Assembly (NCBI GenBank): GCA_043228905.1
Contig: JBHGNT010000020.1
Span: 12,586,001 to 12,650,000 of the forward strand
Origin: Azolla caroliniana
Lineage: Eukaryota > Plantae > Polypodiophyta
Reading direction: 5' to 3'
DNA: 64,000 nucleotides
The notes below the pieces were generated by a model, which searched no databases, was not told the origin of the DNA, and was given only the letters and a program-made list of their open reading frames with translations. A program made the translations under genes and the position numbers. This document shows, piece after piece, positions 11,051-64,000 of this stretch (its first letter is position 1; each line of letters begins with the position of its first letter).

Positions 11051-12157
11051 GGAGCACCATTAGAAACACACAAGACATCATCCATGTAACCACATAAAAC
11101 ACACAAGACATCATCCATGTAACCACATATAGACTAAATGAATATACCGCAATCACATGATCTTCCATCAAGCTATTTTTCATGAATTTAATTTCTCCGA
11201 GCACTCTCTAAATCAATAATTGTATAATTGCCTCTAGTAGTATCATATTTCTTTTGATGAATTTCGAGTTTTCTTTGGGTGCTTTTGAGCACATCATTGT
11301 ACATTATTAGTATTTTTCATGTGAGTCATGTTAAAGTTTCCCATTACTTATATAAAGCATTGTTGAAGAAAATAAACTTGAAGATCGAAAAACTATAGAG
11401 GGGATCAAAATCTTGAAAAACTCATATCCCAATTTACATGAAATGTTTGTAAGTTTTTGTAGATATATTCATTGCTCGAGTTGCCAATTCCTTAATTTTG
11501 TATTGTCTCAAGAAAACATGCGAGTACTCCTAGCTTGTTTGCTTCTCACCATACTCACCCTATGTCTCCAAACAATTTCTAGAATACCTCTTTGTAGTAG
11601 CGGTAGAGACGGGTATTTTGCCATGAGTTTTCCGTTTTTTCTCTAGATTCTCCGATCTTCACCATATTTAGTGAAATGAGACTCATTAAATCCCCTCAAA
11701 GAGATTGCTCATAGAACACATCAATACAATAGGGAAATTAAGGGCGATGAGTCGCCCTTACAATTGCTCTAACAAAACACCGTATGAAATGGTATCGGAC
11801 ATGGGGTTGAGAAAGGGAAATATTTGTCATGGAAACAACATGGGTATTAAATGATTCTATAAGGTTTGTTTAATGCTTGATCCCCCCCCCCCCTTCTTCT
11901 TTTTTCATCACCTAAAGTCTCAATTAATTTAAAACCTTTCCACACTTTGGCACGTTGGGAAGGAACAATTATGTCTCATTATCTCACTAGTTACAATTAA
12001 TGACTTAACACTAATATTTCCCGACATTAATAAATTTGAAGAGAACCTATAGTAATCATTGATGGTTTGTTGCTTCTTAATGAATCATCCTTATTGAATA
12101 ATGTTATGAGTCTAATGTAGTAACTATTGATCCCGATCAATTCTCTTCAACAATATT

Positions 12158-14029
12158 ATGAGGAAGGGTTCATCTATAGTCGAGTTTTCCCATTGTGCAA
12201 TATCAAGAAAGCCTACTATTGATTCCAAGGAGCTCCTTGTCAATGGATCCACATCTCACTCGATGCGCATCATGGAATACTCTCCTCCGACTTTTGATCC
12301 TAAGGTTCTCGAGTGGAGAGATGACATAATGATCAATAACTCGGAGGAACTAATGCATTTGGTACCATCTTCAAACCAATCAAACCATAATCATACTTCT
12401 TCTTCTACTACTACTACTACTACCACCACCACCACATCGAAGATTCCTAATAATGTAATGAAGCAACCTACTCGAACAGTCTTGGGAAACAAGTCTAGTC
12501 CATTCAAATCCATCCGAGAAAAGATAATAAGATCCTTCTCCTTCAAGGAGAAAAACCCAAAGCAAGTCAATGTTATTCCAAGAAAGGAGAAAGAAAGTAG
12601 TAGTACTACTAGGCAGGTAGTCCATACCTCGCACACGGATTCATTGCCTATCAATGGACCTCTTCAAGTCGGTATAGATTCATTCCGATCGGCCAACACT
12701 TACTCGGACATGAATGTGTTACCTCCTAGTATTGATTCTCCTCCTCGAGACAGTATAGATTCATTCCGATTCGCCGACACTTACGCGGTTCCCGATTCGT
12801 TGCCTACCAATGGGCCTCCTCGAGATGGTATAGATTCATTCCGATTGGCTGGCACTTCCTCGGTCACCAATGTGTTGCCTCCTAGTATCGATCCTCCCCC
12901 TCGAGATGGTATAGATTCATTCCGATGGGCCGACACTTACTCGGTCGCCAATGTGTTGCCTCCTAGGATCCATCCTCCCCCTCGAGATGGTATAGATTCA
13001 TTCCGATCGACCGACACTTACGCAATGGAGCAGCAAATGGCGACCAATCTGGAGGAGCGAGCTAGAGAATTGGAAGAACGAGTGAGCACATTCGAGCACC
13101 AATCCCGAATGATGAGCATCAAGGGTCAAGCTCCTTATAACACGAGCTCGATCCGAGAATGTTTAATGCAATACTCCGAATCCAGTGATGATGTGAGTAC
13201 AATAAGTGAGTTAGAGCTCATTAAGAGGTGTGTTGAGGAGAAGAGAGATCTTGCCCTAGAGTTAGCTTCCGAGATCCGAGCTCGGGCTGCTGAACGGGCC
13301 AGCTCGGATGAGGCCCTTCGCAATATGAAAGCAGATATGGAATTTAAACTCAAGCTCCTTCAAAGAGAGAATGAAGTGAAGGTCCGAGAAACCATAGAGG
13401 AGATGGAGTCAGAGTGGTCTATGAAGCTCGAGGTTGCGATGTCCAAAGGCATGAAAACACGAGAGAGATTGAATAGGATTGCCCAAGAGAAGGTGGAGCT
13501 ACACAAGGAAATCTCTTTGTTAGCATCGAAGAAGAATGAATTGGCGGAGCGAGTGCATGAATGTGAGGAGACAATCAAGGCATTGAGAATGAGCAAGGTG
13601 GGAAGCATGGGATCGAGCTCACAAGAGAAGGAGGAGTTGCCATGGAGTGTTGTTGCCCTAAAAAAAGAGTATAGGGAAAAAGAGGAGGGGCTAGTAGAGA
13701 AGCAAAGTGAGTTGGAGAAGGTTTGCAATGAGAAGGTGAAAGCTTTGCAAAGCCTAAGACTTGTCCTAGGGGAGCAAACCAAGTGTCGAGAATTCGGATC
13801 GTTTAGTGAGGATCTAATGACAATGATTCGGATGGAGATGGCGAGGCTTTCTGGTATTGAGCACGCATTGAGGCAAGAAGTTGAAACCCACAAGAAAGAG
13901 ACACTCGTTGATCGAATGGAGAATAGTGGCCTCATGGCCGAGAGTTTGGGTGGCATGACGAGAAATGATAGCACCGTTGGATCAAGATATCATGTATCCC
14001 TCGACAATTTGGAGGATCATATCAAGATG
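12158..14029 (+). CDS. Exon 1 (624 codons) of a plant coiled-coil protein resembling the Arabidopsis At3g55060/At2g39300 family
   Basis: Long clean ORF. Motifs EEKRDLALEL..EIRARAAERAS, SEWSMKLE and MEMARLSGIEHALRQEVE are recalled from that family. Phase-0 donor ATG|GTATGC at 14029/14030. Confidence 0.85.
12630..13025 (+). repeat. In-frame tandem repeat in exon 1 (5 copies, units of 25-27 aa)
   Basis: Core TATAGATTCATTCCGAT at 12673, 12754, 12829, 12910 and 12991 (spacing 81, 75, 81, 81 nt); peptide PPRDGIDSFRxADTY. Confidence 0.93.
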
Positions 14030-14555
14030 GTATGCTCATTCATAAAATTCACTACCACTACCTTAGCACTTAGAATTTCAATGTAGTTCCTTATGTATAT
14101 AATGAAGTATGTGATCATTGGAAATTTAATCACTGATTTTACTTACACATGAAAACAATGTATATCAATATGAATTTCCTCGATATATTATGAACAAAAT
14201 CAGTACTTAACATCTTGCATGGTTTGTACAATGTGCTTATATAATAATTACCAAAGAGGGATTCAATTGTCATGTTGAAAAGTTATGACCATATCTTGTG
14301 AGTTTAAGATCGGCCCATGCTAACTACACCACTCTATTTACTTATCCCTTACATCATTACCCACCTAAACGATAAATCCCTAATTGACAAAGCTAACAAT
14401 ACCCAAATTGTAGCACCATTCGATCAACACTTTTGACTAGGTTATACATAATAAATTGATTACAATATTTTAAAGCTATGATGCCATAAAAGCTTCCATA
14501 TGTGTGTGTATATATATTGTGTAGCCTCACATTTGTTCTTTATTCAATTTTCTAG

Positions 14556-26195: not shown

Positions 26196-28889
26196 AAAAA
26201 CTCCTAGAACTTGAAATAGATAATCTGCTATAATATACATAACATGACCATGTATTTGGATGTATTGGTTAGAACATAACACTTGACTATAATACAAGAG
26301 GTCAAGAGTTGAAATCTTGACATGATTGGTGTCATGTCTGTGACAATTACTTGTAATTTTCTTAAATTATCATCATAACTTCGACATAAATTGTAGTATC
26401 ATCAGCAAACTCGGAATCCAAGAATTGTTGCTGCATTGAGGGCAAAGGCGGACCCTTAAGAGAAACTTGAGAAGACTTTAAATACATTGAAAATGTTTCC
26501 ACTACTAGCAAAAACAAAAATGGGGCCAATGGACAACCTTGACGTATAGAATGTAAAATAGAGAATTTTCTAGTTTGCCCACCAGCTACCAAGACCGAAC
26601 TAAAAGCCTCACGATACAACGAAGCTACAACCCTAATCCATTGGACAAGAAAATCTAACCTAAAAAACGAACCTGCCATGAAGTCCCAATTAACTCCATG
26701 AAGCTACCTTGCTATTGGTACTTGGATGGATGTTGAAGCCATAAATGTTCAATCAATGCTACATTGAATCTAGAATGCAGGTATATCCATCCACATGGTA
26801 CTCACATATTAGGCATTCTTAAACTTGTAATCCTGGCATCCTTAAACTTGTATCTTTGCATGGGAATCACCCACATAAATTATCAACTTGATAAGAAGGG
26901 TAAAGCTAAATGGAATTTTAAGGCATATTACCTTTCAAAAGGACTAACTTATAATACTTAGACAAACTAATAATAAGGATGGAGCTTCCCATAGCCTTCA
27001 TCCATGGAACTAGTAATCCATAAGGTCAATACAAATACCTTTTGTCGGTGTTCATTTCTTGTACCAAAGAAATGATTGGTTAGCATCCATCAATAAAATT
27101 GTATAGGCTATAAAAACCCAAGAAAATGCATTGAAGTTTTGGAGTTGATAGAGTTTCTCAATTGCATTAAGGTAACAAGAAGAATCTCAAAGATTTGAAG
27201 GAAGATGTTGGTTTAATAGAACTTAAGAGATGTTCACTAATATAGGAGAGTGCTTTTTAGTTAATAAGGTGATATATCTAACTTTTGAAATGGTATTGTT
27301 GGTTGGTGGTGTGGAAGGTTGTAAAAGATTATTTTCGCACATGTGATAGAGATAAAGTTAGACCAACATGCCGATCGGCCACATCAATTTTAGCATTCCT
27401 CGCCCATTTCCTGACCTTAATTTGCTTCATCAATGTCCATGGATTTCCTTGATGAACCACCAACATCTTATCAACTTGATAACATTATTTTTGTAGTTGC
27501 ACCATAAACCATGTGGGTCACAACTTGTCTTTATGGTTTTGGTAGACATTATTTTCCGCCACATGCTCTTTTTCTTCTTAAAATCCTTGTAATATCTACA
27601 TACGAGGACAATAGATTGTAAGTATCGACCTCTTTTATCAATACAAAATTTGGACATTTAGCCATTATTATGCATGATCTTTGTCGTTAGGTAATCTTAA
27701 GTCCTATAAGTTGAGATAGACTTTGTTGCATATTCCTTGTGTATGGTCTTCGAAGTAATGTGTGTTTATTACGATGATTCACTATTGTTACAAACCACAT
27801 TTGTCATGCAATTTGTGTTTGGACACATTTGTGGCGTCTTCTTGATTCATCACTTATAATTGTGTTTTTTGTTAATAGATTTTCTATTTCTCGTTATAGT
27901 TGTAGCTTATTGAACCAATAAAAGACAATGCATCAAACAATCCTTCGTTCCTGAACATGATGTAATGCATGAGTTTTGAGTATTGGTTAATGCTTGACAT
28001 GAGTATGAGGATGCCAAAACAGTTTGTACAAATGTTATTTTCTCTCTTGAGTTTTTTAAAAAGTTGCTTGTTAATGCTTAACAAGTATGCTAGGATCTAA
28101 ATGTTGTACTAAAACACAATGTTGAGACCTCCATGAGAGTGTGGAAAATGGCGACCTTTATCTGATGAATAATATCAAGATATCTACATTCCATGAGCAT
28201 GAACAACATCTTAACAAAGATAGAGTTTGGACACATATTTCTCCAAAAGTGGTTGTATATATAAACTTTTTTGCATGTTGGACATCGTCATTGTCATGCC
28301 AAGTGAGCCTCTTGTTGGAGTGGAGGATTTAGAACTGCCTTGTGATTCTTAATCTTAAGGTTTGTTGTTAATCTTGGGTTTCTTAATAGAGAAAAACTAG
28401 TTATAATTGGTGGCATGGGATCTACATAGCATGGTTGGTCAAACATTGAATCACCATTAGTATGTAAGCTAAAGGATTTTGATGACTTTTGGAAAGTACA
28501 TTGATCTATTCATGGCTTGGATGAACACTATCATATCGAGGCGTCCTCTAGAATTGTATATTATGAGAGAGACATCCAATATTTTAGGGAAGTAAAAACT
28601 GAACTCTAATTTTTCTAGACAACTTACTCTCAAAGAACATATCCTTATACACATTGGTGCCTTGTAAACTTTTAGTATTGTAACATTTCATAGTAAACTT
28701 CTTGAACATCAAGAGAGAATCATCAACTATAACATATGGTGGGTATCATGATATGGCAAGACTCAAACCCATGACCTTATGTTATATGGGTCAAGCTCTT
28801 GACCATTATACCATCTATTATAATACGTAGGATATTATTTTCATTTAAGTTTTATTATAGGAAATTAATGTATTTTCCAGATTTCTCTG

Positions 28890-28934
28890 GAACATTCTAG
28901 AAGCTTCAGGATTACTCCTGAGAACACTATAAAA
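28890..28934 (+). promoter_or_regulatory. Perfect 4-unit heat shock element plus TATA box in the chromovirus LTR (HSE copy at 35277-35294)
   Basis: GAAcaTTCtaGAAgcTTC at 28890-28907; TATAAAA at 28928-28934. Confidence 0.75.
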
Positions 28935-29041
28935 GAAGGCATTAGGCATTATTTTGAACCAAATTGGTTCAACGCCAGTCTTAAGACTCATAGCCCTTTT
29001 GTACTTACTCTTCACATAATATATCCTCTGTTATCATCATC

Positions 29042-29090
<49 letters not shown>

Positions 29091-29215
29091 CTCGCTATCT
29101 CTCATCCTCGTTATCTCTCTCTCTCTCCTCTTCTCTCTTCCTCTCTCGGGAGTCTCACGCAGTCCCGTCCTCTTAGTACTAATAGTACTTCCCTTTTTTA
29201 AGTACTAATTCTCTC

Positions 29216-29391
29216 TTGTTCCAAGGCAACAAATTTTTCTTTTAGACATTGTAGCTCGGAGAAAACAGATTGATATGCTTGGGCGCTAACAGTAGCCATA
29301 GTATAGTAAAAAGGGTAGGAGGATGAAGAAAAACGACAAGTAGACTTGAGGGAAAATTGGTTCAAACTATCAGGAATAGTACTAAAACAGA
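29216..29391 (-). other. 176-bp inversion containing the 5' LTR end, PBS and first 28 gag codons
   Basis: The reverse complement restores the LTR end matching 39406-39430, PBS GTTTGAACCAATTT, and ATG MATVSAQAYQSVFSELQCLKEKFVALEQ in frame with ENQRLIGDLQQ at 29392. Confidence 0.93.
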
Positions 29392-32300
29392 GAAAACCAA
29401 CGATTGATAGGGGATCTGCAACAAATCGCTCTCAAAAAACAACAAACACAGCAACAACATGGGGAGTTAGCGTTACGGGTACAACAACTCGAAGTAGGGT
29501 TGCAACAACAAGGATCAAGTCCCCAAGGATTTCATAAAGAGCCCAAGATTGGACTTCTTGTGAAATTTGATGGAACGCGATCACAATTCATGGGATTCCT
29601 TAATCAGGTACGCTTAGTCATCCAAATGCATCCTTCTCGATACCCATTGATGCATCCCGAGTCGGCCTAATAGGCACGTTGTTTAGTGGCTCAGCCTTAG
29701 CATGGTTCGCTCCGCTTCTAGAAAAACAATCGCCCTTGCTTAATAACTTTGAAGACTTTATTAGTGAGTTTAAAGCCTGCTTTGGAGATACCGACAACAT
29801 CCGGACAACGATCAACAAAATCCGACGATTGCGTCAAGGCGATCGTCCAGCCTCTGCCTACGTGGCGGATTTCCCTCTACTCGCCTGAGATATCTCTTGG
29901 GATGATCAAGCACTAATAGAGCAGTTTCGCTATGGCCTGCGAAACGATGTCAAAGATTTACTTTTAACCTTCCCCGAAGAACCAAAGTCTCTTACGGAGG
30001 CAATTAGTCAAGCGGTCCAATGCGACAACCGCCTTTTTGAACGGCATTTGGAACGTCAATTACAAATACCACGCTTTAGGGCGGAGCCCACATACGCCTC
30101 AATTGTGGCTAAACCGTTTGCACGCGACGTACCTCAAGCAAATACTTCGACATCGATGGAGATTGACACCATGCGTCTACGTGACCCATTATTGGAAGAA
30201 GAAAAACAACGATGACGTGCAAATCGATTATGTCTTTATTGCAGTGGACCAGGGCATATTGCAATCAATTGTCCCCATAGGCCAAGAAGACAGGTAAATC
30301 AAATTGTAGCCTGTACTAAACCCGAGTCAATTCTTCCCTTAGGAGTATCTAATAGTATTAATAATACTAATAGAGTGTCTGATAGTATTAATAGTACTAA
30401 TAGCCCAAGTATCTCAAATAAATTTGAAATCCTTAGTCAATTCGATGAAGAGTTAAACGATTGAGTCCAGCCAAAATAGGAGCCGTTCTGTACAACCCAT
30501 TAGTGGTTCCATTCCCTCCAAGCAAGTTAGCAATGTGTTCCTAGCCCAAGTCATGGTTAGTACTAAAAGTACTCCCCAAGTACATGTCCTAGCACCTCAA
30601 GATTGTGGAGCTAATTCCTGTTTCATGGATCGAAATTTTGCCCAAGCTTCTCAGATATCCTTAAGAAAACTTCCGTGCCCCACATCTGTAGTAGTCATTG
30701 ATGGTCGTCCCATTGCTTCCGGGAATATTGTAGAAGAGTCAGAACCCATTCAAGTTGTCCTAGGTAGTTTTGTGTGTGTAGTATCATTTAATATAATTAG
30801 TAGTCCAGAGCATCCCATTATCCTGGGATTACCTTGGTTTGAATTACATAATCCCAACATAGATTAGAGAACAAGAGAAGTCCGATATCGACAACCCCAA
30901 GAATCTACTCATCGAGTTTCGACCATTTCACTCCATCAATTATGCAAAGAAGGACACAAGGAGGCAATGTTCCTATTTGCAATATCAGTACATCCTTCCA
31001 GCACTATTAAGGAGGAATCCCTAGTGCAACGTCCGACAAAATATCATCCTTATGCCGATGTATTGGACAAGGTAAAAGCCGGTACTCTTCCTCATCATCG
31101 TCCCTATGATTGTCCCATCGATTTACAACCAAGAACAGAGCCACCATGGGGACCAATTTACAACTTGTCACCCACCGAGTTAGAAGTCCTTCGAGCCTAC
31201 ATAGAGGAGAACTTGACAAGTGGGTTTATTCGTCATTCGAAATCTCCAATCAGTGCACCCATCTTCTTTGTCAAGAAGAAAGATGGCTCACTTCGTCTCG
31301 TCGTTGATTACCGCAGCTTGAATAAAGTCACCATTCGGAATAGGTATGCACTTCCTCTTATATCAAGTCTTTTAGAGCGAGTTAATGGTGCCAAGGTTTT
31401 TACAAAAATTGATCTACGAGGAGCGTATAACCTCGTGCAGATCCGACCGGGAGATGAATGGAAGACCGCCTTTCGCACGCGGTATGGGCATTTCGAATAT
31501 ACTGTTATGTCGTTTGGTCTAACCAATGCACCTACAGTCTTCCAACACATGGCAAATGATATATTCAAAGAACTCTTGGATATCTGTTTGATCATCTATC
31601 TGGATGATCTATTGATTTATTCGAAGACCTAGGAAGAGCACGATTCTCATGTACTATTAGTACTAAAACGATTCCGCGAGAATGGTCTTTATGCCAAGCT
31701 AGAAAAATGTAGCTTTGACTGCAAGCAAGTGGAATTTCTAGGCTACGTCATCTCCTCAAAGCGCATCTCCATGGATCCAGCTAAAGTCCAAACTGTGCTA
31801 GAGTGGCAAATTCCACGGTCGGTATGAGATGTACAATGTTTTCTAGGTTTTGCTAACTTCTACTGCAAGTTTATACAGGATTACTCGAAGATTATTTTAC
31901 CTCTCACACAACTTACGAAGAAGGGACAAACATTTCTTTGGACCAATGAAGCGGACATGGCTTTTCGGCATCTTAAGAACGCCTTTACATCAACTCCTAT
32001 TCTAGCACAAGTGGATACAAACAAACCATTCATCATGGAGGCCGATGCATCGGATTTCGCCCTAGGTAGCATCCTTTCTCAACAAGGAGATAAAGAAAAG
32101 TTACATCCTGTGGCTTTCCATTCGCGCAAATTCGATGCCGCAGAAATCAACTACGAAATACATGACAATGAGTTATTAGCCATCGTGGATTCCTTTGTGC
32201 AATGGCGGTATTTCTTAGAGGGCTCTCCACATCAGGTCATCGTCTTTAGTGATCACAAAAATCTTGCTTATTTCCAGAACGCTCAGGTGCTAAATTGACA

Positions 32301-33371
32301 GCAAGCTCAGTGGGCTCAATTCCTCACGTGTTTTGACTTCAAAATCACATATCGACCGGGGAAGCAGCAAAGAAAAGTAGATGAGCTATCACGACGTTCA
32401 TATCTTGCACCTTGTCCTGGTGATCCAGCGTTTGATAATCAAAAGCAAGTAATCTTGGGACCAAGACGATTGCACACAACACAGATTTTTCACACCCCAA
32501 TGGATTCCCGGATTACCGATGCCATACGTGCGAACTTGAAGATAGACAGTTTTGCTCAAGACATTCTGGCGCACATTGATACCTCTTGGGCATCCTGTTC
32601 CCAATCTCAACAACCAAGTATGGACTACCGAAAATTCGAACATCATGATGGTTTGTTATTCTTTAAAAAGCTTGTATATGTCCCCGATTGCTCCTATCGC
32701 CTTCAAATCGTCCAAAATTGTCACAACACCCATATGGCAGGACATTTCGGTAGTACTAAGACGTTGGACCTCGTTCAACGATCTTTTTGGTGGCCCCATA
32801 TGTGACGTTTTGTCAACGACTACGTTCGGACTTGTGATGCTTGCTGCCGAGTAAAGATGCCCCGACACCATCCATATGGCTTGTTGGAACCCTTACCGAT
32901 TCCAAGTAAGCCGTGGCAGTCTATTTGTCTTGATTTTATCACAGATCTACAGGTGTCGAAGGGGTTCGATGCTATCTTAACCGTCGTCGATCGATATACT
33001 AAGATCACACATTTTGTGCCGTGTACTAAGGCCATCACTAGTGAGGAAACCGCCGCCCTTGTCATGCATGAGGTATTTCGGCATCACAACCTCCTAGACA
33101 GTATCATCAGTGACCGAGGACCTCAATTCGTCTCCAAATTTTGGCAGCATCTCTTCGAGATGCTTAAGGTCTCTTACAACTTGTCCTCCGGCTACCATCC
33201 CCAGACCAATGGGCAGGCGGAACGAACAAACCAAACGCTGGAACAATATCTCCGGTGTTTTCTGAGTTATCAACAGGATGATTGGACCGAGATTCTCCAC
33301 TTTGCGGAGTTTGCATATAATAATGTTGTTCCCTCCTTGACTCGGGTCTCCCCATTTTACGCTTATACCAG

Positions 33372-34333
33372 TGTTGCGGTATTCCGCGGGTATGTGTAGG
33401 ATCTTAGGCGGGACCGCGGGGGTCTTGAACTAGGGAGACAGATGGTAGAGTCCTTATGCTTTGCAGGCTTCGGTCCAGAACCGGCTTCCGGCTCCAACGA
33501 AGGTAGGGTTTCACAAAAGGACGGCTCACCGCGAATATGGACCCGACTCAAATATGTTACAAGGAAGATAGATATACACTAACATGAATATATATAACAA
33601 GAGTTTACAACAAGACGGTTACATGCCCCGAATCTAGTGGCTATTACAAACAATCGGCTAATACATCAAGATAAGAATGGGAACTGGCGAAGGGGAGTCA
33701 AGTGGGCCGCCGGGACCGCGATGTCCACCGTTGGTCACACCCCGAAGACGATGGAGTGTTCCCGTCTCGAACCGGCCGCCACACAAAACGCTCTCCATCG
33801 AGGAGAGGAAGCCGAATCACCAAGTGCCGCCACCGGAATGCCTAAAGCTGTCGTTGTAGGAACCCCCAAACCAAACCAAACTCTCACACGAAGAAGAGAG
33901 AGTAACACCCGGAGACCCCAAGTACATAAACCCTAACTCGCACGAACTCTCTCAAGAAGAAGAACCTAAAGAGAATACTAACTTCCACCCAAAAGAGGGA
34001 ACCAAACCTATCAGAAAATGAAGAAGAAGACTCAAATGAAACCCTAAACGAAATAGAGTGAAAAGACCAAAATGGAAACCCTAAGAGAACAAGAATAAGA
34101 TGTAGAGGAAGAACACTACCAAACCCTAGACCTAAGTGGTATACCCTCCTAACTCCAAAATGGGCAACCCTTTAACAAAGGGTGCTCCTTTCCTTTTATA
34201 GAACAAGGAGAGGGATGCGTTACAATGTGGGATAAATACTCCCCCTTATTCTATACACCGTTTCCTACTATACATGTGCAACATGTGCCCATTCCACCCC
34301 TGTTTCACACTATAGCCGGAAATCTTCACGACA
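33372..34333 (-). mobile_element. Solo LTR (962 bp) of the 4-bp-TSD gypsy group, inserted in the chromovirus integrase
   Basis: TG..CA termini similar to the LTRs at 52586 and 55352; 34140-34240 is the reverse complement of ~55490-55590; TSD CCAG/CCGG; removing it restores YAYTGSHP. Confidence 0.88.
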
Positions 34334-34544
34334 CCGGTTCTCATCCTCCTTGGTTGGTTAGTGATCGACACCCCGGAGCTACCTACCAATCCTCATGCCG
34401 AGGCGTTTCCTACTATACATGTGCAACATGTGCCCATTCCACCCTTGTTTCACACTATAGCCGGAAATCTTCACGACACCGGTTCTCATCCTCGTTGGTT
34501 AGTGATCGACACCCCAGAGCTACCTACCAATCCTCGTGCCGAGG
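34259..34544. repeat. ~143-bp tandem duplication spanning the solo-LTR/integrase junction
   Basis: cgtttcctactatacatg...gccgagg at 34259-34403 and 34404-34544. Confidence 0.92.
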
Positions 34545-35135
34545 ATCATTTGGAGAGGCTACACAAGATCCAGATAGATATCTCTACTCATCTTCGTCAT
34601 GCTCAACACAACACACAGAAGACTTATGCGGATCGTCATCGGCTTCCCTCCTCTTTTGCCATCGGAGATCGACTATGGCTCTTACGTCGTCACATCAAGA
34701 CTACTCGACCGTGCGACAAGTTGGATTATCGACGACTCGGTCCTTTCCGTATTACTAGTAAGGTTAATGATGTGACGTTCCGCCTTGATCTCCCTCCGCA
34801 TCTTCAGATACATCCGGTTTTCCATAGCTCTCTTCTTGAACCTTATAAAACAAACACTATTCCCGATCGTGTTACACCACCACTACCCCCGCTTGAGTTG
34901 GAAGCCGGCCCGGAGTATGAAGTTACTGCCGTCCTCGATTCCAAACTTGTTCGCAACAAACTTTATTATTTGGTCGATTGGCTCGGCTATAGTCCGAGCG
35001 AACGTACTTGGGAACTTGTCGAGCATGTCGCCAATGCTCAGGATCTTCTTGCTGAGTTCCACCGAAAGTATCCGGACAAACCCGGTTCGCAATTAGCGCC
35101 GACTCGTTCCACTCGTCGTCTTAAGGGGAAGATAG

Positions 35136-35205
35136 TGTCATGGCAAGACTCGAACCCATGACCTTATGTTATATGGGTCGAGCTCTTGACCATTACACCA
35201 TCTAT
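35136..35205 (-). other. tRNA-like (Pol III A/B-box) module at the start of the chromovirus LTR; copy at 28744-28817
   Basis: Minus strand reads AGA-TGGTGTAATGG-TCAAGAGCTCGACCCATATAACATA-AGGTC-ATG-GGTTCGAGTC-TTGCCATGACA, with tRNA-like A-to-B box spacing. Confidence 0.65.
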
Positions 35206-35428
35206 TGTAATACATAAGATATTATTTTCATTTAAGTTTTATTATAGGAAATTAATGTATATTCCAGATTTCTCTGGAACATTCTAGAAGCTTCAGGATT
35301 ACTCCTGAGAACACTATAAAAGAAGGCACTATGCGTTATTTTGAACCAAATTGGTTCAACGCCAGTCTTAAGCCTCATAGCCCTTTTGTACTTACTCTTC
35401 ACATAATATATCCTTTGTTATCATCATC

Positions 35429-35476
<48 letters not shown>

Positions 35477-35479
<3 letters not shown>

Positions 35480-55800: not shown

Positions 55801-56790
55801 ACGAGCCTGAGAGCTCCCTGACGGCGGCTTGGCTGCAGACTACCGTTGCGACCTAGCCTACCTCACTCCGACGCAGAGTCGGAGTTGTAACTCACTCTTG
55901 TAATCATAAATATATACAGGGTTGTGCATATTTGTGTCTCTGTTGGTGTGCGTTGTCGTGAAGAAAACCGTCCATAAGCGGAATCGGCGCACCAAGGCGT
56001 GGGAACCGGTTCTTCACGCACGCACGCTCCAAGTTGTACATAGAAGCGAATTAGGAGGATAATCGGCAGGAACGGGCCCTAACACAAGTGGAGACAAAGA
56101 CCGCGCGAACAGTCTTTTCGGTCGGGCGCGCGAGCTAAGGAACTGTACGAGTCGGCGGCGTAACTACACGGATGCGTGAAGAACGGAGCAGATCCCTGTT
56201 CAAAAGGGACAGGGAATAAAGCTGACAGGACGGCCTGCTCGTCGGCCTATATAAGGAGCAGGAAAGAGCTGTTGCAGGGATCTCGCGCGGAGAGGACGAA
56301 GTGCTGTCGGACCGTTTCTGGACGCTTCTCTCTCTGTTTCCTTCCTTCTTGAGCTCCATAGCTTTTCTGTGCAGGGTTCCGAGGAGGCTCGCGCTGTTTC
56401 GAGGAACGCCCGAGTGCTTCCGGCAGCATCTCCGACCTGCTACCCCTTTGTGCGTCAAAGCGAACAAGCGCCGGCTTCTGTTCGCCGGCCTGTTCGGCTG
56501 TAACCAACCTGTGCCCCATCGAGGGTTGTAGTCGTGTTAGCCATTTTTGTTAATATACATAGTTAGTCATTCGCATCTGTCTGTGTCGGTGTCTGTTCGC
56601 GTTCTCCGTGCTGAAGGGCCGTGTCCCTGTGTATTCCCGGTCCTGCGTAGCCGGTTCTCTCTCCTTCTCCTCCCTCGCTTGCTCTTTGGTTCGAGACCCC
56701 CGCGGTCCCGCCTCGTTTCCACACGCACTTGCAAAACATCTCGACATCTTTGGTGAACCCGACGTGAAGGAGGCGGCAGAAGAGCAGAAG

Positions 56791-58917
56791 ATGAGGGGGT
56801 CGGATCTTGCAGAGGCCATGGCTTCGGCCGTGGATCGGATTGTAAACGCGCGCGAGGGCACCAGTGCCCTCGACAGAGCTATTGAGGCGGTCGTCGGCAC
56901 GATCGGCCGGTTCGATGGGAAGGATGCCACGAAGTATTTGGCGTCCTACGGTGCAGAGATGCTGATGCGGGACATTCCGGAAGAAAGGCGTCTTGCCGGA
57001 TTTTCCCGAGTGGCGATGCCGAGCATCCATGCGGAGGTGCTCGAGGTGCGGGCGGAGAGCCGTACCTGGGAGGAGTTCGAAGGTCGGCTCCTAGAGAAAT
57101 ACGGGCTGGACGACGCGCTCCGGCTTTCAAAGCGAAGGTTCATGGAATGGGTGGAGTCCCCGGGGAAGGGAAGAAACGCGTCGGCACTCCTCCGGGAGTT
57201 CGAGGAAACCTTTGCGCGCCTTTCGGCGCTCGACCGAACCATCCTGGACACGAGCCGGGTCTTGCTGTTTGTCAAGTCGGTCGACGAGCGGGATCGGGAG
57301 CAAGTGGGCCTCTTGCTGGAAACCGAAGACGGGCTCACTACCGACTGGGCGGCTGTCAAGAAAGTCTGTGACCGTTTCGACAAACGGCGAGAATGGGTGG
57401 ATAACGGGGCAACCGGGTCGGGCTCGGTCGCAGCAAGGAAGCTCGAACCAGCGCCACAGGAGCGAAAGGAAGAGGCCCGAGAGTGGTTGGAAACCGGTTC
57501 GGCTTCGACCGGCGTAGTCAGAGGCTCAACCGGAGGAGCGGCGCTGGAGGAATTGACGAGGGCGATAAAGGACCTCCAAATCGCGCAAGCCCGAAGGGAA
57601 GGTGGCGAACCGGCTCGTGACCGACGGCCGGCGGCAGGAAACAGGTGCATGTGGTGCGATGAAGTCGGCCACATTCGGAAGGACTGCGGCGACTTCGCGG
57701 AGGCGCTGAGGAACAAGGTGGTGTACCTGTGGGAAGGACGGGTGCATGCCAGCGACACCCGAAGGGCCCTGAGCCGAAACGACGGGCGAGGTGGTATGAA
57801 AAGGTTGATGGAAGAGGCGGCGGCCCGACACGCGGAAACCGTCCACTACTCGGCGTCGGCCGGCATTCGAGTCGGGGGCGGCGAGGCCCGAAGGGAAAGC
57901 AAAGCCGGATTCTGGCCGACGATGCTGGAAGGCCTTGCCAGTGCAAGGCTTATAAGGGAGGAATCGGACCGTGCGGAGAAACGGGTACGGGAGATGACCG
58001 GGTGGAGCGACCCGGTCGAGGAAAAGACGGGCTTCGTGGAAGCCGCTTGCCAGAACTACGAGGCTCTGGTGGAAGAGAAGCGGGTGGGGAAACCCGGGAC
58101 GACCGGGCCCTCACAACGATACGAGACCCGGTCCGGGCCACGACGGGACGAAGCCGGCGGGGCCGGTACGCAAGATAAACCCCAGAAGGGCGGGTACCGT
58201 CTGGGGACGGAGATAGAAAGGACCACGGACTTACGAAAGGTCCTGGAGGAACGGATCCTCGACAGCAAGGTGGAGCTATCGCTACGAGAGGTGCTGGGAA
58301 TCGCCAAGAAGGAGTTCCACGACTCCATCGTGGACTTGGTAAAAAGGAAGAGGCTGTCAACGGAGACAGAACCGGAAAGACCGGTGGAAGTGCGGACGAC
58401 GCACCTAGACGACATGGCGCTGGGAGACGAGTGGGCGGAAAGCCATTATTCGAGACCACACTGGGCCCGAGCGACCACGGAAACCCCGGTGAAGATCGGC
58501 GAAGTCCAGGAACCGGTGGTAGCTTTGGTGGACCACGGATCGGAGATCAATATGATGTCCATGGACTTCTATAAGAAGGGCAAATGGCCGATCAACACCA
58601 AACACGGGTGGAAAATAAGGGCAGCAACGCGCGCCACCGAGGAACTGCACGAGGCCTGTCCGAATGTGCGAGTCAAGATCGGCGACGTCGAGATTGACCA
58701 GCACTTCTTCGTGCAGGAGACGTCTTCGCATCCGGTCATACTGGGAGAGCCGTACATCACGGCGGCATGAATGGAGACCAAGGTGCTGGACAATGGTTCG
58801 GCCTACGCGAGGGTCAAAAGCCAAGACGGGCGCCATTCGGTCCAGTTTCTGACGGTACGGCCGAACCACGAACGTAACTGCGACTCCCTCGGTTCCGAAA
58901 ACCGAGAGGATTTTTAG
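56791..58917 (+). CDS. gag: Gag-protease ORF with one internal TGA (58768-58770)
   Basis: ATG at 56791; zinc knuckle CMWCDEVGHIRKDC; protease VVALVDHGSEIN..ILGEP; the frame stays open after the TGA until GAT TTT TAG. Confidence 0.85.
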
Positions 58918-61900
58918 AGAGGACTGCCAAGGCGTGGGGCCGCGACAGTCCGGATGCTCCGGGAAAACCCCACATCTGTACGATAAAGCCGTGTACAATA
59001 GGTAGGAAATTTTGCTTCTCCGACAGCGGAGCATGTACGATGGTCGGCATTGCCGGCCGAGAGAAAACAAAGACGGAGGGGAGACTTCGGGCGTGCGGAG
59101 TTCTCGGCCCTGACGAAGAAATCGACGGAGCCGTGGAGGCAGTCTCCTTCGATGACACCTTGGGAATGCTGGGGAAGGTGGTCGAGGAAGACCTTAACGA
59201 AGACCGGACGATACCGGTATGTTCAGAAGAAATGTACGAAGTCATCGCGGACTTCGGTCGAGGGCTTGAGTCGGAACGGACGGCCCGAGTTAGCACCAAG
59301 TACAAGACTGTGGACCGGAAGGTGAGACCAGTTGCGGCGCCCTTACCGGAGGGCAGCGAATCCCGAATAAAAATGGTTGCATCGGACCCCAACTTACGAG
59401 ATCCGGCCTGCATAGGACACACCTTCACCAACGAGACGCTCCGCGAGCTGAAGATCGGTGGGGGCGGGTTCCTACTGCCGGTGGAGGAAGACCGGTTTCG
59501 GAGAATGCTCGGAAGCCACGGGAAAGCCTTTGCGTTCTCACTGGAGGAAATCGGGTGCGTAGACCCGACGGTCGTAGAGACAATGGTGATATTCACGGTA
59601 CCGCATGTACCGTGGAATCTCAAGCCAATTCCGGTTCCGAGAGCTCACATCCCGAAGTTGATGGAGCTGTTGAAGCAGAAAGTTGATATGGGCATTCTCG
59701 AGCCGTCGAGCGCCCCATATTCAAACCGATGGTTTACCGTACCAAAGAAAAACGGATCGTTGCGCTTCATTCAAGACCTGCAGCCGGTCAACAGAGTGAC
59801 CATTCGGAACGCAGGGATCGGACCGACCATAGACGAGTTCGCGGAGGCCTTCGCCGGAAGGTCGATTTACTCGGTCGGTGATCTATACTCAGGGTACGAC
59901 CAGTTCCAGCTAGCCGTGGAGAGCAGAGACATTACGACGATGCGAACTCCCCTCGGTCTAGTGCGGATGTGTACGTTGCCGCAAGGAGGAACCAACTCGG
60001 TGGCCCACATGGTGAATGCAATGAACAAGGTGCTGAGGGACTGCATCCCGGACATCACCATGCCGTTTCTAGACGACATCCCGATCAAGGGATGCCCGGT
60101 AGAAGAGAAGGACGAGACGATCGGGCCGGACGGATGCCGGCGATTCGTGATGACGCACATCGACGACTGCGAGAAGGTGCTGCAAAGGCTAGAGGATGCG
60201 AGGCTCACCTTCTCGGGGGAGAAGTCAGCCTTCGGGCAGTCGGAAATCATGGTGGTCGGACATTTATGTGGACCATATGGCCGGAAACCGTCTCCGGCAA
60301 AGGTAGAAGCCATCTCTGCGATGAAGCCTGATTGCAGTTCGGTCATGGAAGTACGACGATTCTTGGGAGCATGCGCCTTCTACCACATATGGATCCCGCA
60401 TTATGCGCACGTCGCTGAGCCGCTGTACGGGTTATTGAAGAAAGGGCGAAGATTCCAATGGCTAGACAAGCACACGGAGTCGGTCCGGAAGCTGAAGGCG
60501 GCTCTTTCGGCAGCACCGGCGCTCCGAAAGGCCGTCTACAGGAAGGGCACCCCAGTGTACATAACGGTTGACACGAGTCCGACCGGGATCGGGTGGGTCG
60601 TCAACCAAGAAGACGAGGACGACAATCGGTTTCCGATCCGATTCGGCGCAAAGGTCCTCAGTGAGCGGCAGCGAGGATACGCCCATGTTAAACGCGAACT
60701 CTGGGGTATCGTTTCGGCGGTGAAGGCCGACAAGGACTATCTGATCGGGACAGAGGTAATCATAGAGACGGATTGCATGCCGATTCTCGGCATGGTTTCC
60801 GGATGCGCGACGCCGGACCTGGCAATGCTCAGGTGGATAGCGTACATCAAGTCCCTGGACCCGGAAATACAACACATTTCCGGGAAAGACAACGACATGG
60901 CCGACATGCTTTCGAGGGCGAGGTTCGATGACGAGGGCGGCATGGTTTCGGAGGACGAAGAGGTCGGCGTGGACTTCTTCGAGGCAGCATACGTAACAAC
61001 CGACAGGACGAGCACTCCGGCGCTTAACGACTTCGACGCGAGCAAGTACGACGGGGAGTGGCTGCAGATCGGCGGGTTCTTGAGGACAATGGCGCCGGAT
61101 GCGTCATGGACGAAAGACGAGGCCAACCGGATCCGGAAGAAAGCGTACCGGTTCTTCCTCCGGGATGGCTATCTATGGAAGCACCCGAAGAAGAGGGACG
61201 GCGCTCCGCTCCGGGTGGTGGCGATGAAGGAAGAACAGGAGGAGCTGCTGACGGCCTACCATGACAGCCCTTGGGCCGGACACCGTGGAACTTGGGCCAC
61301 GTTCGAGAAGATAAAGGAGAAGTACTGGTGGCCGGGACTGTACCGGGACGTGCATCGATTCGTGATAACTTGCGAGAGCTGTCAGATGCACTCCGTGGTC
61401 CGACACCGGGACGAGCTTCACCCAACGTACCCTCCGACCATCCACTTCAAATGGATGGTAGATCTGGTGACGATGCCAATGGGGGTAGGACATATGCGGT
61501 ACCTGGTCCTAGCGCGGGAGGATCTGACGAACCAGGTGGAAGGCCGGGCCCTTCCGAACAAAACGACCGCGGCCGTATGTCGGTTCCTAATCGAGGACGT
61601 GATATGCCGGTACGGGTGCGTCGGGAAGATCGTGGCTGACCGAGGGGAGTTGGACGCCGAAGAAGCCGCGGAGCTGTTCGACCGGCTTGGAGTCAAGCTC
61701 TCGCTCACCACTGCGTACAATCCGGAGGCGAATGGAAAGGTGGAGCGCGGACACGGGCCGATCGTCAAGGCGTTGGTTCGGGCATGCGGAGGCCGAGTCG
61801 GTAACTGGCCGCGGCTGCTACCTTATGCTTTGTGGGCAGACCGGACCACGCACAGTTCGGTAACCGGGTACATGCCGACGGAGCTCATGTTCGGCCAGAA

Positions 61901-62396
61901 GCCGATCATGCCGATGGAACAGACGATCTCCACGTGGGCAACGGTCGACTGGAGGGACGAGATGACCCGGGAGGAGTTGTTGGGCGCGCGTATACGACAG
62001 CTCGAGCGGAGACCGGAGGACGTGGAACTGGCTGCGGAGAAGCTCCGGGTGGCGAGGACAAAGAACAAAGCCAGGTTCGACCGAACGCACCGGCTCCGAC
62101 CGAAGAAAATCGAAGAAGGTGACTGGGTGCTCGTCTACGACAGCAGCCTCGACAACCAGCACCGAGCTACACGGAAGTTCGCACGAAGGTGGTTCGGGCC
62201 TTACGTGGTACGGAGCGCCAATGACAACGGGACATATCACCTGGCGGAACTCGACGGCACGAGAATGGCGATACCGGTTGCAGGGAAGCGGATCAAAGCG
62301 TTCAAGAAGCGACACGACGACGAGCCGGACCCGGCTCTCCTAGTCAGCAGTGACGAACGATCCGAAAACGAGGAAGAACCGACGGGCGAGGAATGA
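58908..62396 (+). CDS. pol: Pol (RT-RNase H-integrase), intact, in the -1 frame
   Basis: Open from 58908; PFLDD, VDTSPTGIG, H..PWAGH..CESC, WMVDL..ADRGE..GKVE and GPY motifs; no chromodomain. Confidence 0.95.
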   Translation, partial: GFLERTAKAWGRDSPDAPGKPHICTIKPCTIGRKFCFSDSGACTMVGIAGREKTKTEGRLRACGVLGPDEEIDGAVEAVSFDDTLGMLGKVVEEDLNEDRTIPVCSEEMYEVIADFGRGLESERTARVSTKYKTVDRKVRPVAAPLPEGSESRIKMVASDPNLRDPACIGHTFTNETLRELKIGGGGFLLPVEEDRFRRMLGSHGKAFAFSLEEIGCVDPTVVETMVIFTVPHVPWNLKPIPVPRAHIPKLMELLKQKVDMGILEPSSAPYSNRWFTVPKKNGSLRFIQDLQPVNRVTIRNAGIGPTIDEFAEAFAGRSIYSVGDLYSGYDQFQLAVESRDITTMRTPLGLVRMCTLPQGGTNSVAHMVNAMNKVLRDCIPDITMPFLDDIPIKGCPVEEKDETIGPDGCRRFVMTHIDDCEKVLQRLEDARLTFSGEKSAFGQSEIMVVGHLCGPYGRKPSPAKVEAISAMKPDCSSVMEVRRFLGACAFYHIWIPHYAHVAEPLYGLLKKGRRFQWLDKHTESVRKLKAALSAAPALRKAVYRKGTPVYITVDTSPTGIGWVVNQEDEDDNRFPIRFGAKVLSERQRGYAHVKRELWGIVSAVKADKDYLIGTEVIIETDCMPILGMVSGCATPDLAMLRWIAYIKSLDPEIQHISGKDNDMADMLSRARFDDEGGMVSEDEEVGVDFFEAAYVTTDRTSTPALNDFDASKYDGEWLQIGGFLRTMAPDASWTKDEANRIRKKAYRFFLRDGYLWKHPKKRDGAPLRVVAMKEEQEELLTAYHDSPWAGHRGTWATFEKIKEKYWWPGLYRDVHRFVITCESCQMHSVVRHRDELHPTYPPTIHFKWMVDLVTMPMGVGHMRYLVLAREDLTNQVEGRALPNKTTAAVCRFLIEDVICRYGCVGKIVADRGELDAEEAAELFDRLGVKLSLTTAYNPEANGKVERGHGPIVKALVRACGGRVGNWPRLLPYALWADRTTHSSVTGYMPTELMFGQKPIMPMEQTISTWATVDWRDEMTREELLGARIRQLERRPEDVELAAEKLRVARTKNKARFDRTHRLRPKKIEEGDWVLVYDSSLDNQHRATRKFARRWFGPYVVRSANDNGTYHLAELDGTRMAIPVAGKRIKAFKKRHDDEPDPALLVSSDERSENEEEPTGEE

Positions 62397-64000
62397 AGAC
62401 GGGCCGGTTTTCTCCGTCCCAACTCTCTTGGCGCATACCGGAGGATGCGCCGTTAGGTGGGGGCGGATGTCGTGAAGAAAACCGTCCATAAGCGGAATCG
62501 GCGCACCAAGGCGTGGGAACCGGTTCTTCACGCACGCACGCTCCAAGTTGTACATAGAAGCGAATTAGGAGGATAATCGGCAGGAACGGGCCCTAACACA
62601 AGTGGAGACAAAGACCGCGCGAACAGTCTTTTCGGTCGCGCGCGCGAGCTAAGGAACTGTACGAGTCGGCGGCGTAACTACACGGATGCGTGAAGAACGG
62701 AGCGGATCCCTGTTCAAAAGGGACAGGGAATAAAGCTGACAGGACGGCCTGCTCGTCGGCCTATATAAGGAGCAGGAAAGAGCTGTTGCAGGGATCTCGC
62801 GCGGAGAGGACGAAGTGCTGTCGGACCGTTTCTGGACGCTTCTCTCTCTGTTTCCTTCCTTCTTGAGCTCCATAGCTTTTCTGTGCAGGGTTCCGAGGAG
62901 GCTCGCGCTGTTTCGAGGAACGCCCGAGTGCTTCCGGCAGCATCTCCGACCTGCTACCCCTTTGTGCGTCAAAGCGAACAAGCGCCGGCTTCTGTTCGCC
63001 GGCCTGTTCGGCTGTAACCAACCTGTGCCCCATCGAGGGTTGTAGTCGTGTTAGCCATTTTTGTTAATATACATAGTTAGTCATTCGCATCTGTCTGTGT
63101 CGGTGTCTGTTCGCGTTCTCCGTGCTGAAGGGCCGTGTCCCTGTGTATTCCCGGTCCTGCGTAGCCGGTTCTCTCTCCTTCTCCTCCCTCGCTTGCTCTT
63201 TGGTTCGAGACCCCCGCGGTCCCGCCTCGTTTCCACACGCACTTGCAAAACATCTCGACAGCGTGTGTGTGTGTCTTAGTGTTTCTTTCTTGCTTATGTA
63301 CATATGTGTGTGAGAGTCAATATTGCGTGCCCGCTCTCTCTCTCTCTCTCCCTTCGGTTGCTTCCGGTGTGCTTCTGGGATGCCCCGGAAATGGTGAAGC
63401 ACGACTTCCTACGTTCCGTCACTCCCTAGTCCAAGACCCCCGTGGTCCCGCCTTTCTCCAACACGTACTCGCAAAACTTCGCGACACCGTGACTGACCCA
63501 CAATCATCCTTCATCGCGGAGATGGCTTCTACCTTTGTCGGGGACGGCTTCCGGCCGTAAGGCCTGCACCAGTGTTCGACTACCAAGATCTCCGGTTGTC
63601 CGAAGGCTGATTTTTCTCATGAGAAGGTGAGTCGCGCGCTCTCGAGTCTTTGTAGCACCTTCTCGCAGTCGCGGATGTGATCCATCACGAACCTCCGGCA
63701 ACCGTCGAGCCCGACCGACTCGTCCTTGTCCTCCATTGGACATCCTTTGATCGGGATGTCGTCCAGAAATGGCATGGTGATGTCCGGGATGCAGTCCCTC
63801 AACACCTTGTTCATCGCATTCACCATGTGCGCCATTGAGTTCGTTCCTCCTTGCGGCAGGGTACAAATCCGAACTAGGCCGAGAGGAGTCCGCATCGTCG
63901 TGACATCCCTGCTCTCTACGGCTAGTTGGAACTAATCGTACCCTGAGTACAGATCCCCGAACGAGTAGATCGACCTCCCTGCAAAGGCCTCCACGAACTC

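Follow-up and report, generated by a model that had tools for sequence, protein, structure and literature searches.

Pol III promoters in LTRs have been described for short non-autonomous elements, where they make element RNA. The Helenus / TRIMp3 elements (Kojima 2024, PMC10886601) are short non-autonomous TRIMs of 311-1263 bp with tRNA primer sites; the same article states that 'not a few' Repbase LTRs hold tRNA-like pieces, and the analyses in its available text concern TRIMs only. The Tcn1 clade is known for a self-priming layout (Neumann 2019, PMC6317226) and, among plants, is reported in the accessible sections of that paper from mosses and club-mosses only, which makes a non-seed plant the probable host of the elements described here. 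Sites with a B box only, referred to as ETC/COC, bind TFIIIC and act as boundaries, and mutation of a B-box cytosine abolishes TFIIIC binding in tRNA genes (accessible text of PMC3395662).

The stretch of 64 kb analysed here (the window) encodes a decayed copy of a Tcn1-type chromovirus (Ty3/gypsy) at 28744..35477 on the plus strand. This element of ~6.7 kb has its pol in pieces, with recognisable portions of RT, RNase H, integrase, SH3 and a chromodomain at the end of pol (34916..35068, plus; PF00385, E=2e-12). The gypsy domain order with a C-terminal chromodomain is found, and the aromatic Y/W/Y residues are visible in family copies. The Tcn1-type label is assigned from domain order, chromodomain and self-priming, the trees described below containing no reference Tcn1 sequences. 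The two LTRs of the copy are ~4% diverged (13 substitutions in about 302 aligned bp). The element had been called autonomous in the initial annotation. This part of the description applies to the family, which has open pol frames of about 1200 aa, and fails for the window copy, which is dead, with a broken pol, a 3' LTR interrupted at a CT tract and a 5' LTR without a primer site. The family, referred to as family A, is large, with 3138 exact matches to a U3 22-mer. Contigs of four sequencing runs also contain it, which shows presence and not transcription, and a scan of viral contigs has revealed no relatives.

A predicted transcript start and self-primer at 35350..35360 (plus) is complementary to the family primer site just after the 5' LTR. 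Primer site and predicted transcript start are concordant in 29 of 29 pairs, from loci some of which overlap (23 T/A and 6 C/G, including a compensatory change). By these complementarities the family is self-priming and has no tRNA primer site, and the cassette described below is therefore not a primer site.

The 3' LTR (35136..35477, plus) begins with TGTCA directly after the polypurine tract (PPT; 35123..35135, plus; position same in relatives) and breaks off in a CT microsatellite. On the minus strand, its first 65 bp contain A and B boxes at tRNA-like spacing with AGGTC between them. The order from 35200 to 35136 is the A box TGGTGTAATGG (35190..35200), a spacer of about 26 nt, AGGTC (35160..35164), about four bases, the B box GGTTCGAGTC (35147..35156) and TGACA (35136..35140), which is the end of the minus-strand cassette and the tip of the LTR. 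The B box is of TFIIIC type by sequence match to the published consensus. AGGTC is a variable-loop signature of tRNAs and completes the extended B-box consensus GTCnnnnGTTCRAnYC, as given in the accessible text of PMC3159450. This arrangement at the start of U3 had been recognised in the initial annotation and is confirmed by coordinates. The cassette had also been placed at the very end of the LTR; it does lie within the first 65 bp, but the B box stops 11 nt from the tip in the window copy and 16 nt from it in the commonest form. Since the box-to-tip distance varies from 6 to 40 nt across the chromodomain-sampled LTRs, the cassette is not part of the integrase end. The 5-nt shorter leader and the A-box letter of the window copy recur in other copies.

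The distance from G19 to G53 is 35 nt in the window cassette, and it is 33-35 nt in 69 of 72 measured host tRNA sequences. The A...B pair is found once in the window, at the tip of the 3' LTR, and 200 dinucleotide-shuffled versions of the 8 kb element contain no A box with an extended B box at tRNA spacing. The 5' LTR has a second cassette (28760..28813, minus) with the A box intact and a CpG transition, C56T, in the B box, which hits the cytosine that is critical in tRNA genes. A TATA box at 35315..35321 (plus), conserved family-wide, marks by its sequence the putative Pol II promoter of the LTR. The cassette is antisense and is therefore not the promoter of the genomic RNA. The nearest T4 run outward from the 3' LTR is ~350 nt away, antisense to the chromodomain. 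Elsewhere in the window, a young gypsy element (55954-63260; LTRs 99.7% identical, 1172-aa pol frame) has an LTR start without the cassette, and an open frame of 651 aa at 12131-14086 (+) has internal 81/156-bp repeats and no Pfam match.

The cassette was compared with 96 host tRNA sequences of 13 classes, which form an incomplete set. Local alignment scores are highest with Arg-TCT (52), followed by Ile (49), Lys (47) and Met (44); shuffled sequences reach at most 39. The likeness to tRNA-Met noticed initially is thus not specific, and an origin from tRNA-Met as the specific donor is rejected, Met being fourth among the 13 classes. ARAGORN calls no tRNA on the window cassette, and the window segment has no match in Rfam at E<=10, even with 111 bp. 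Similarity to a tRNA covariance model, raised in the initial annotation, is found in part: the sister family G aligns to the whole tRNA model (RF00005, 25.2 bits, E=0.0014; below the cut-off of 29), and neither the window segment nor family F has an RF00005 match. The T stem has 1-3 Watson-Crick pairs in the 11 listed cassettes versus 4-5 in 78 of 82 host tRNAs. With the stem lost and no match by ARAGORN or Rfam, a functional tRNA is rejected, as the initial annotation had already held. In the same 11 listed cassettes the fixed letters of the B box and GTC are mostly kept and the variation falls at consensus-free positions. Letters kept with the T stem lost are what would be expected of a DNA motif and not of an RNA fold.

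The likeness to tRNA could also be read as complementarity, the cassette acting as RNA. The genomic RNA would then anneal by its 3' end to a host tRNA, in the T arm and variable loop, aiding packaging, dimerisation or strand transfer. The U3 position right after the PPT and the orientation agree with Ty3 (accessible text of PMC5371799), runs of 13-20 nt that could anneal to host tRNAs are found with G:U allowed, and a precedent is provided by HIV-1, in which extra sequences complementary to tRNA-Lys3 promote reverse transcription (accessible text of PMC6468702). We consider such annealing improbable, as these elements self-prime without a tRNA primer site, no one tRNA is the best partner across families, A58 is retained in all 11 listed cassettes and the match ends at C61. 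The modified m1A58 of tRNA would not pair.

Conservation was followed in a box-blind sample of 70 of 150 chromodomain matches (30 taken by locus and 40 hand-picked), 68 of which have a callable LTR start. Of these 68 Tcn1-type LTRs, 52 have an exact antisense match to the extended B box in the 80 nt next to the tip, and 64 have one when a single mismatch is allowed; the copies are not independent, ~41 belonging to family E, and the independent units are the families. The sense orientation is found in 2 of the 68. The extended B box is seen in 0/68 in each of three intervals further downstream and in 0/26 LTRs of another chromovirus lineage. Families A, A2, E, F, G, I and J are cassette-positive in the box-blind sample, B and C come from a search anchored on the PPT and B box, and family H has a degenerate box only, yet exists in several copies. 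Integrase-chromodomain identity between the families is 44-81%. Genome-wide, 5306 matches linked to LTR ends have been counted versus 17 for a reversed-pattern control.

On comparison with nine other LTR types, including one without coding flank (type D, L152), the 16-mer of B box and GGTC is the top conserved stretch of the window LTR (12.8/16; null maximum 11.3). In the same sliding 16-mer comparison the A-box region is at background, and the sequence between the boxes has no conservation across the nine types. Families B, C, E and I have a degenerate A box, and two classes of A box can be distinguished, TGG...ATGG versus TAGCTCA...TGG. The spacing measured from the D-loop GG is 33-35 nt in six families (A, A2, J, I, F and G) and 39-41 nt in three others (B, C and E); family E combines this spacing and a degenerate A box with many open pol frames.

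Two non-autonomous derivatives, which make up family B here (L141 and L149, with an LTR spacing of ~1.7 kb in L149), have kept the antisense cassette and the self-priming pair. At L149:6075-6165 the 3' LTR has given way to a near-perfect inverted repeat made of its first ~45 nt, which probably arose by fold-back.

Variation within family A was studied in 90 box-blind LTRs, the first 90 of the 3138 in genome order. The B box is intact in 78, the A box in 53 and both in 44. No column of the 17 in the block of B box and GGTC is polymorphic, versus 26 of 148 in the rest of U3 (p=0.046). Three A-box columns are variable, and two of these correspond to the degenerate positions R9 and N12. The expectation that the boxes are more conserved than neighbouring U3 is hence borne out for B box and GGTC, both across families and within the family, and not for the A box, which is at background across families.

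These counts bear on a reading in which the selected function is a Pol III transcript, an outward or antisense RNA regulating the element or feeding small-RNA pathways. Such a transcript would fit the family-A copies with both boxes intact, the tRNA-like spacing of A, A2, J, I, F and G and the strong fold of A, F and G. The degenerate A box and longer spacing of B, C and E, including the family rich in open pol frames, and the lack of conservation between the boxes make it an unlikely explanation. The lesser conservation of the A box, as judged from these alignments, favours TFIIIC docking over outward Pol III transcription.

The window segment folds as a single long imperfect hairpin across the cassette (35136..35197, plus; z -3 to -5), a feature missing from the initial annotation. 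The fold is not lineage-wide: it is strong for the whole cassette in families A, F and G only, and no significant whole-cassette fold is found in families C, B, E, I, J, H and D (z -0.7 to 2.2). Short palindromes occur at the LTR tips of C, E and I. In family A the hairpin has z -4 to -5 and its arms are also well conserved, with variation mostly in the loop, which offers a second possible cause of the within-family signal. An RNA or DNA hairpin serving plus-strand initiation or end processing, with the boxes as passengers, would account for the pattern in family A, the tip palindromes and the fold-back end in L149. Most of the seven families without significant fold still have the B box, and we regard this explanation as quite unlikely.

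The CpG of the B box has decayed in 9 of the 90 family-A LTRs, and the one in the opposite hairpin arm in 12. Lost about as often as the other, the B-box CpG shows no protection against methylation decay; most genomic copies accordingly bear no sign of methylation protection, and this counts against the docking reading. The dead copies, which lose this CpG like other CpGs, would suit a neutral passenger, namely a piece of a tRNA or SINE that entered a single time and has since been copied along with the LTR. The persistence of the motif where the remaining U3 cannot be aligned, the two distinct A-box classes and the probable distribution of carriers over more than one clade (AU p=0.045, see below) speak against such a passenger, which we hold to be very improbable.

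A use of the cassette as landing pad for other elements is rejected, no cluster of break-offs at a fixed distance being found in this small sample of family-A LTRs. Among 68 LTRs picked for intact boxes, 58 run on for at least 300 nt; six break-offs represent one tandem-repeat derivative and the rest lie at 103, 103, 123 and 229 nt. In this tandem repeat (L101, L105, L106, L317, L332, L339) the first ~101 nt of the LTR, which contain the whole cassette and AT-rich sequence upstream of it, are joined to an unrelated A-rich segment.

A box-blind scan of metagenomes has identified 80 loci. An LTR start could be called in 52 of them (some of the calls being doubtful), and 4 of these 52 have the cassette. 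All 4 carriers are from one accession series, which also contains families A, F, H and I, and closer inspection has added two more of the same series (L394 and L434). The cassette is found in 0/45 records outside that series; as a feature of all Tcn1-like elements it is therefore rejected, and it looks restricted to a host lineage. With close relatives lacking it, the cassette is dispensable for the clade, which counts against the docking reading as well.

In a tree of 56 rows (L270 dropped) the carriers fall into two clades, one of which has cassette-less elements as its sister group (UFBoot 97). With 36 of the 56 rows, monophyly of the carriers is marginally rejected by an AU test (p=0.045; KH 0.050). 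The cassette has thus possibly been gained twice. The two carrier clades, the marginal AU result and the two A-box classes together suggest either repeated capture or an exchange of LTRs between families sharing a host, with losses in the sister groups as the alternative.

Similar motifs have been observed outside these families. A non-chromovirus LTR family with a tRNA-type primer site and about 2570 first-look candidates (L291, L294, L296, L343-L362; e.g. L343:1575-1890) has two cassettes that point apart, an antisense one upstream of the TATA box and a sense one downstream of it. A repeat in L082 and L083 (~1500-1553, minus), SINE-like or other, has the window's A and B boxes with an unrelated spacer and a terminal stem, with no LTR end adjoining. 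Tandem arrays of a tRNA-iMet-like motif with a period of ~1540 bp are found in G000:C49 and C118, and a cluster of the tRNA-iMet-like motif at C5:24.67-24.72 Mb. Other tRNA isotypes are clustered too.

A promoter that faces backwards cannot make element RNA and so needs another job. We propose that the cassette at the LTR tip is a tRNA-derived promoter facing outward whose B box is a docking site for TFIIIC, with a predicted role as chromatin barrier, and we give this proposal about an even chance. On the sequence patterns described above, the selected feature is likely to be a tRNA-derived TFIIIC docking site that probably serves as an insulator. TFIIIC is suggested as the reader because the conservation fits a DNA motif, and the barrier role is suggested by analogy with the B-box-only boundary sites. 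The cassette would descend from a tRNA gene or a tRNA-derived SINE; it may have been inserted antisense into U3, or a tRNA may have been copied early in plus-strand synthesis. Selection would act in the replicating master copies. TFIIIC would bind the B box at the LTR tip, and the site would form a barrier that bounds the Pol II promoter of the element on its outer side, shielding it from silencing. Subfamilies with an intact A box may also produce short Pol III transcripts.

If TFIIIC docks, a lineage that probably targets heterochromatin via its chromodomain would carry its own boundary element, and about 5,000 candidate TFIIIC sites would have been seeded through the genome of 523 Mb. Such sites would bear on chromatin organisation and on the annotation of tRNA genes. 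More tentatively, autonomous LTR retrotransposons from at least two clades in this host lineage may have repeatedly captured tRNA-gene promoters, with TFIIIC as a portable insulator by which their Pol II promoters stay open in heterochromatin. We think this wider idea doubtful; if true, it would describe a convergent anti-silencing device, which takes the form of a single outward cassette in two Tcn1 subclades and of two divergent cassettes on either side of the TATA box in the non-chromovirus family.

Among the systems compared, the Helenus elements share with the present families an LTR that contains A and B boxes within tRNA-derived sequence, conserved boxes without a working tRNA and a SINE insertion proposed as origin (accessible text of PMC10886601). 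The unit is antisense at the U3 tip here, whereas it is sense and internal in the Helenus LTRs of the supplement, and the present carriers are autonomous self-priming chromoviruses with an element of ~6.7 kb. The non-autonomous family B also has its cassette antisense, unlike the sense Helenus unit. Cassandra and Ajax (accessible text of PMC10886601) likewise have a Pol III promoter sequence within the LTR; theirs, however, is derived from 5S rRNA, neither element is autonomous, and the promoter of Cassandra produces the transcript of the element itself.

The SM-Tcn1 element of Selaginella (Novikova 2010, PMC2864245) is similar in its chromodomain, self-priming and layout of primer site and R start, as far as the accessible text describes them. 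Its LTR has no such cassette on a by-eye reading of the supplement, and the term 'B box' is absent from the searched text of that paper. The bipartite primer-binding site of Ty3 (accessible text of PMC5371799) likewise places complements of the T arm and D arm in U3; Ty3, however, is primed by tRNA-iMet, whereas the present elements self-prime and have no tRNA-complementary 5' PBS.

The ETC/COC sites agree with the present cassette in matching the B-box consensus while the A box is weak or absent. They lie at fixed host loci, and their consensus is extended on the 3' side (accessible text of PMC3395662), whereas the candidate site here lies on a mobile element and has a 5' GTC signature. Our search of mostly open-access literature found no paper on such a cassette in the LTRs of autonomous Tcn1 elements. 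A captured Pol III promoter in an LTR is of a known kind, and its antisense, terminal form in autonomous self-priming chromoviruses, as described here, appears to be new.
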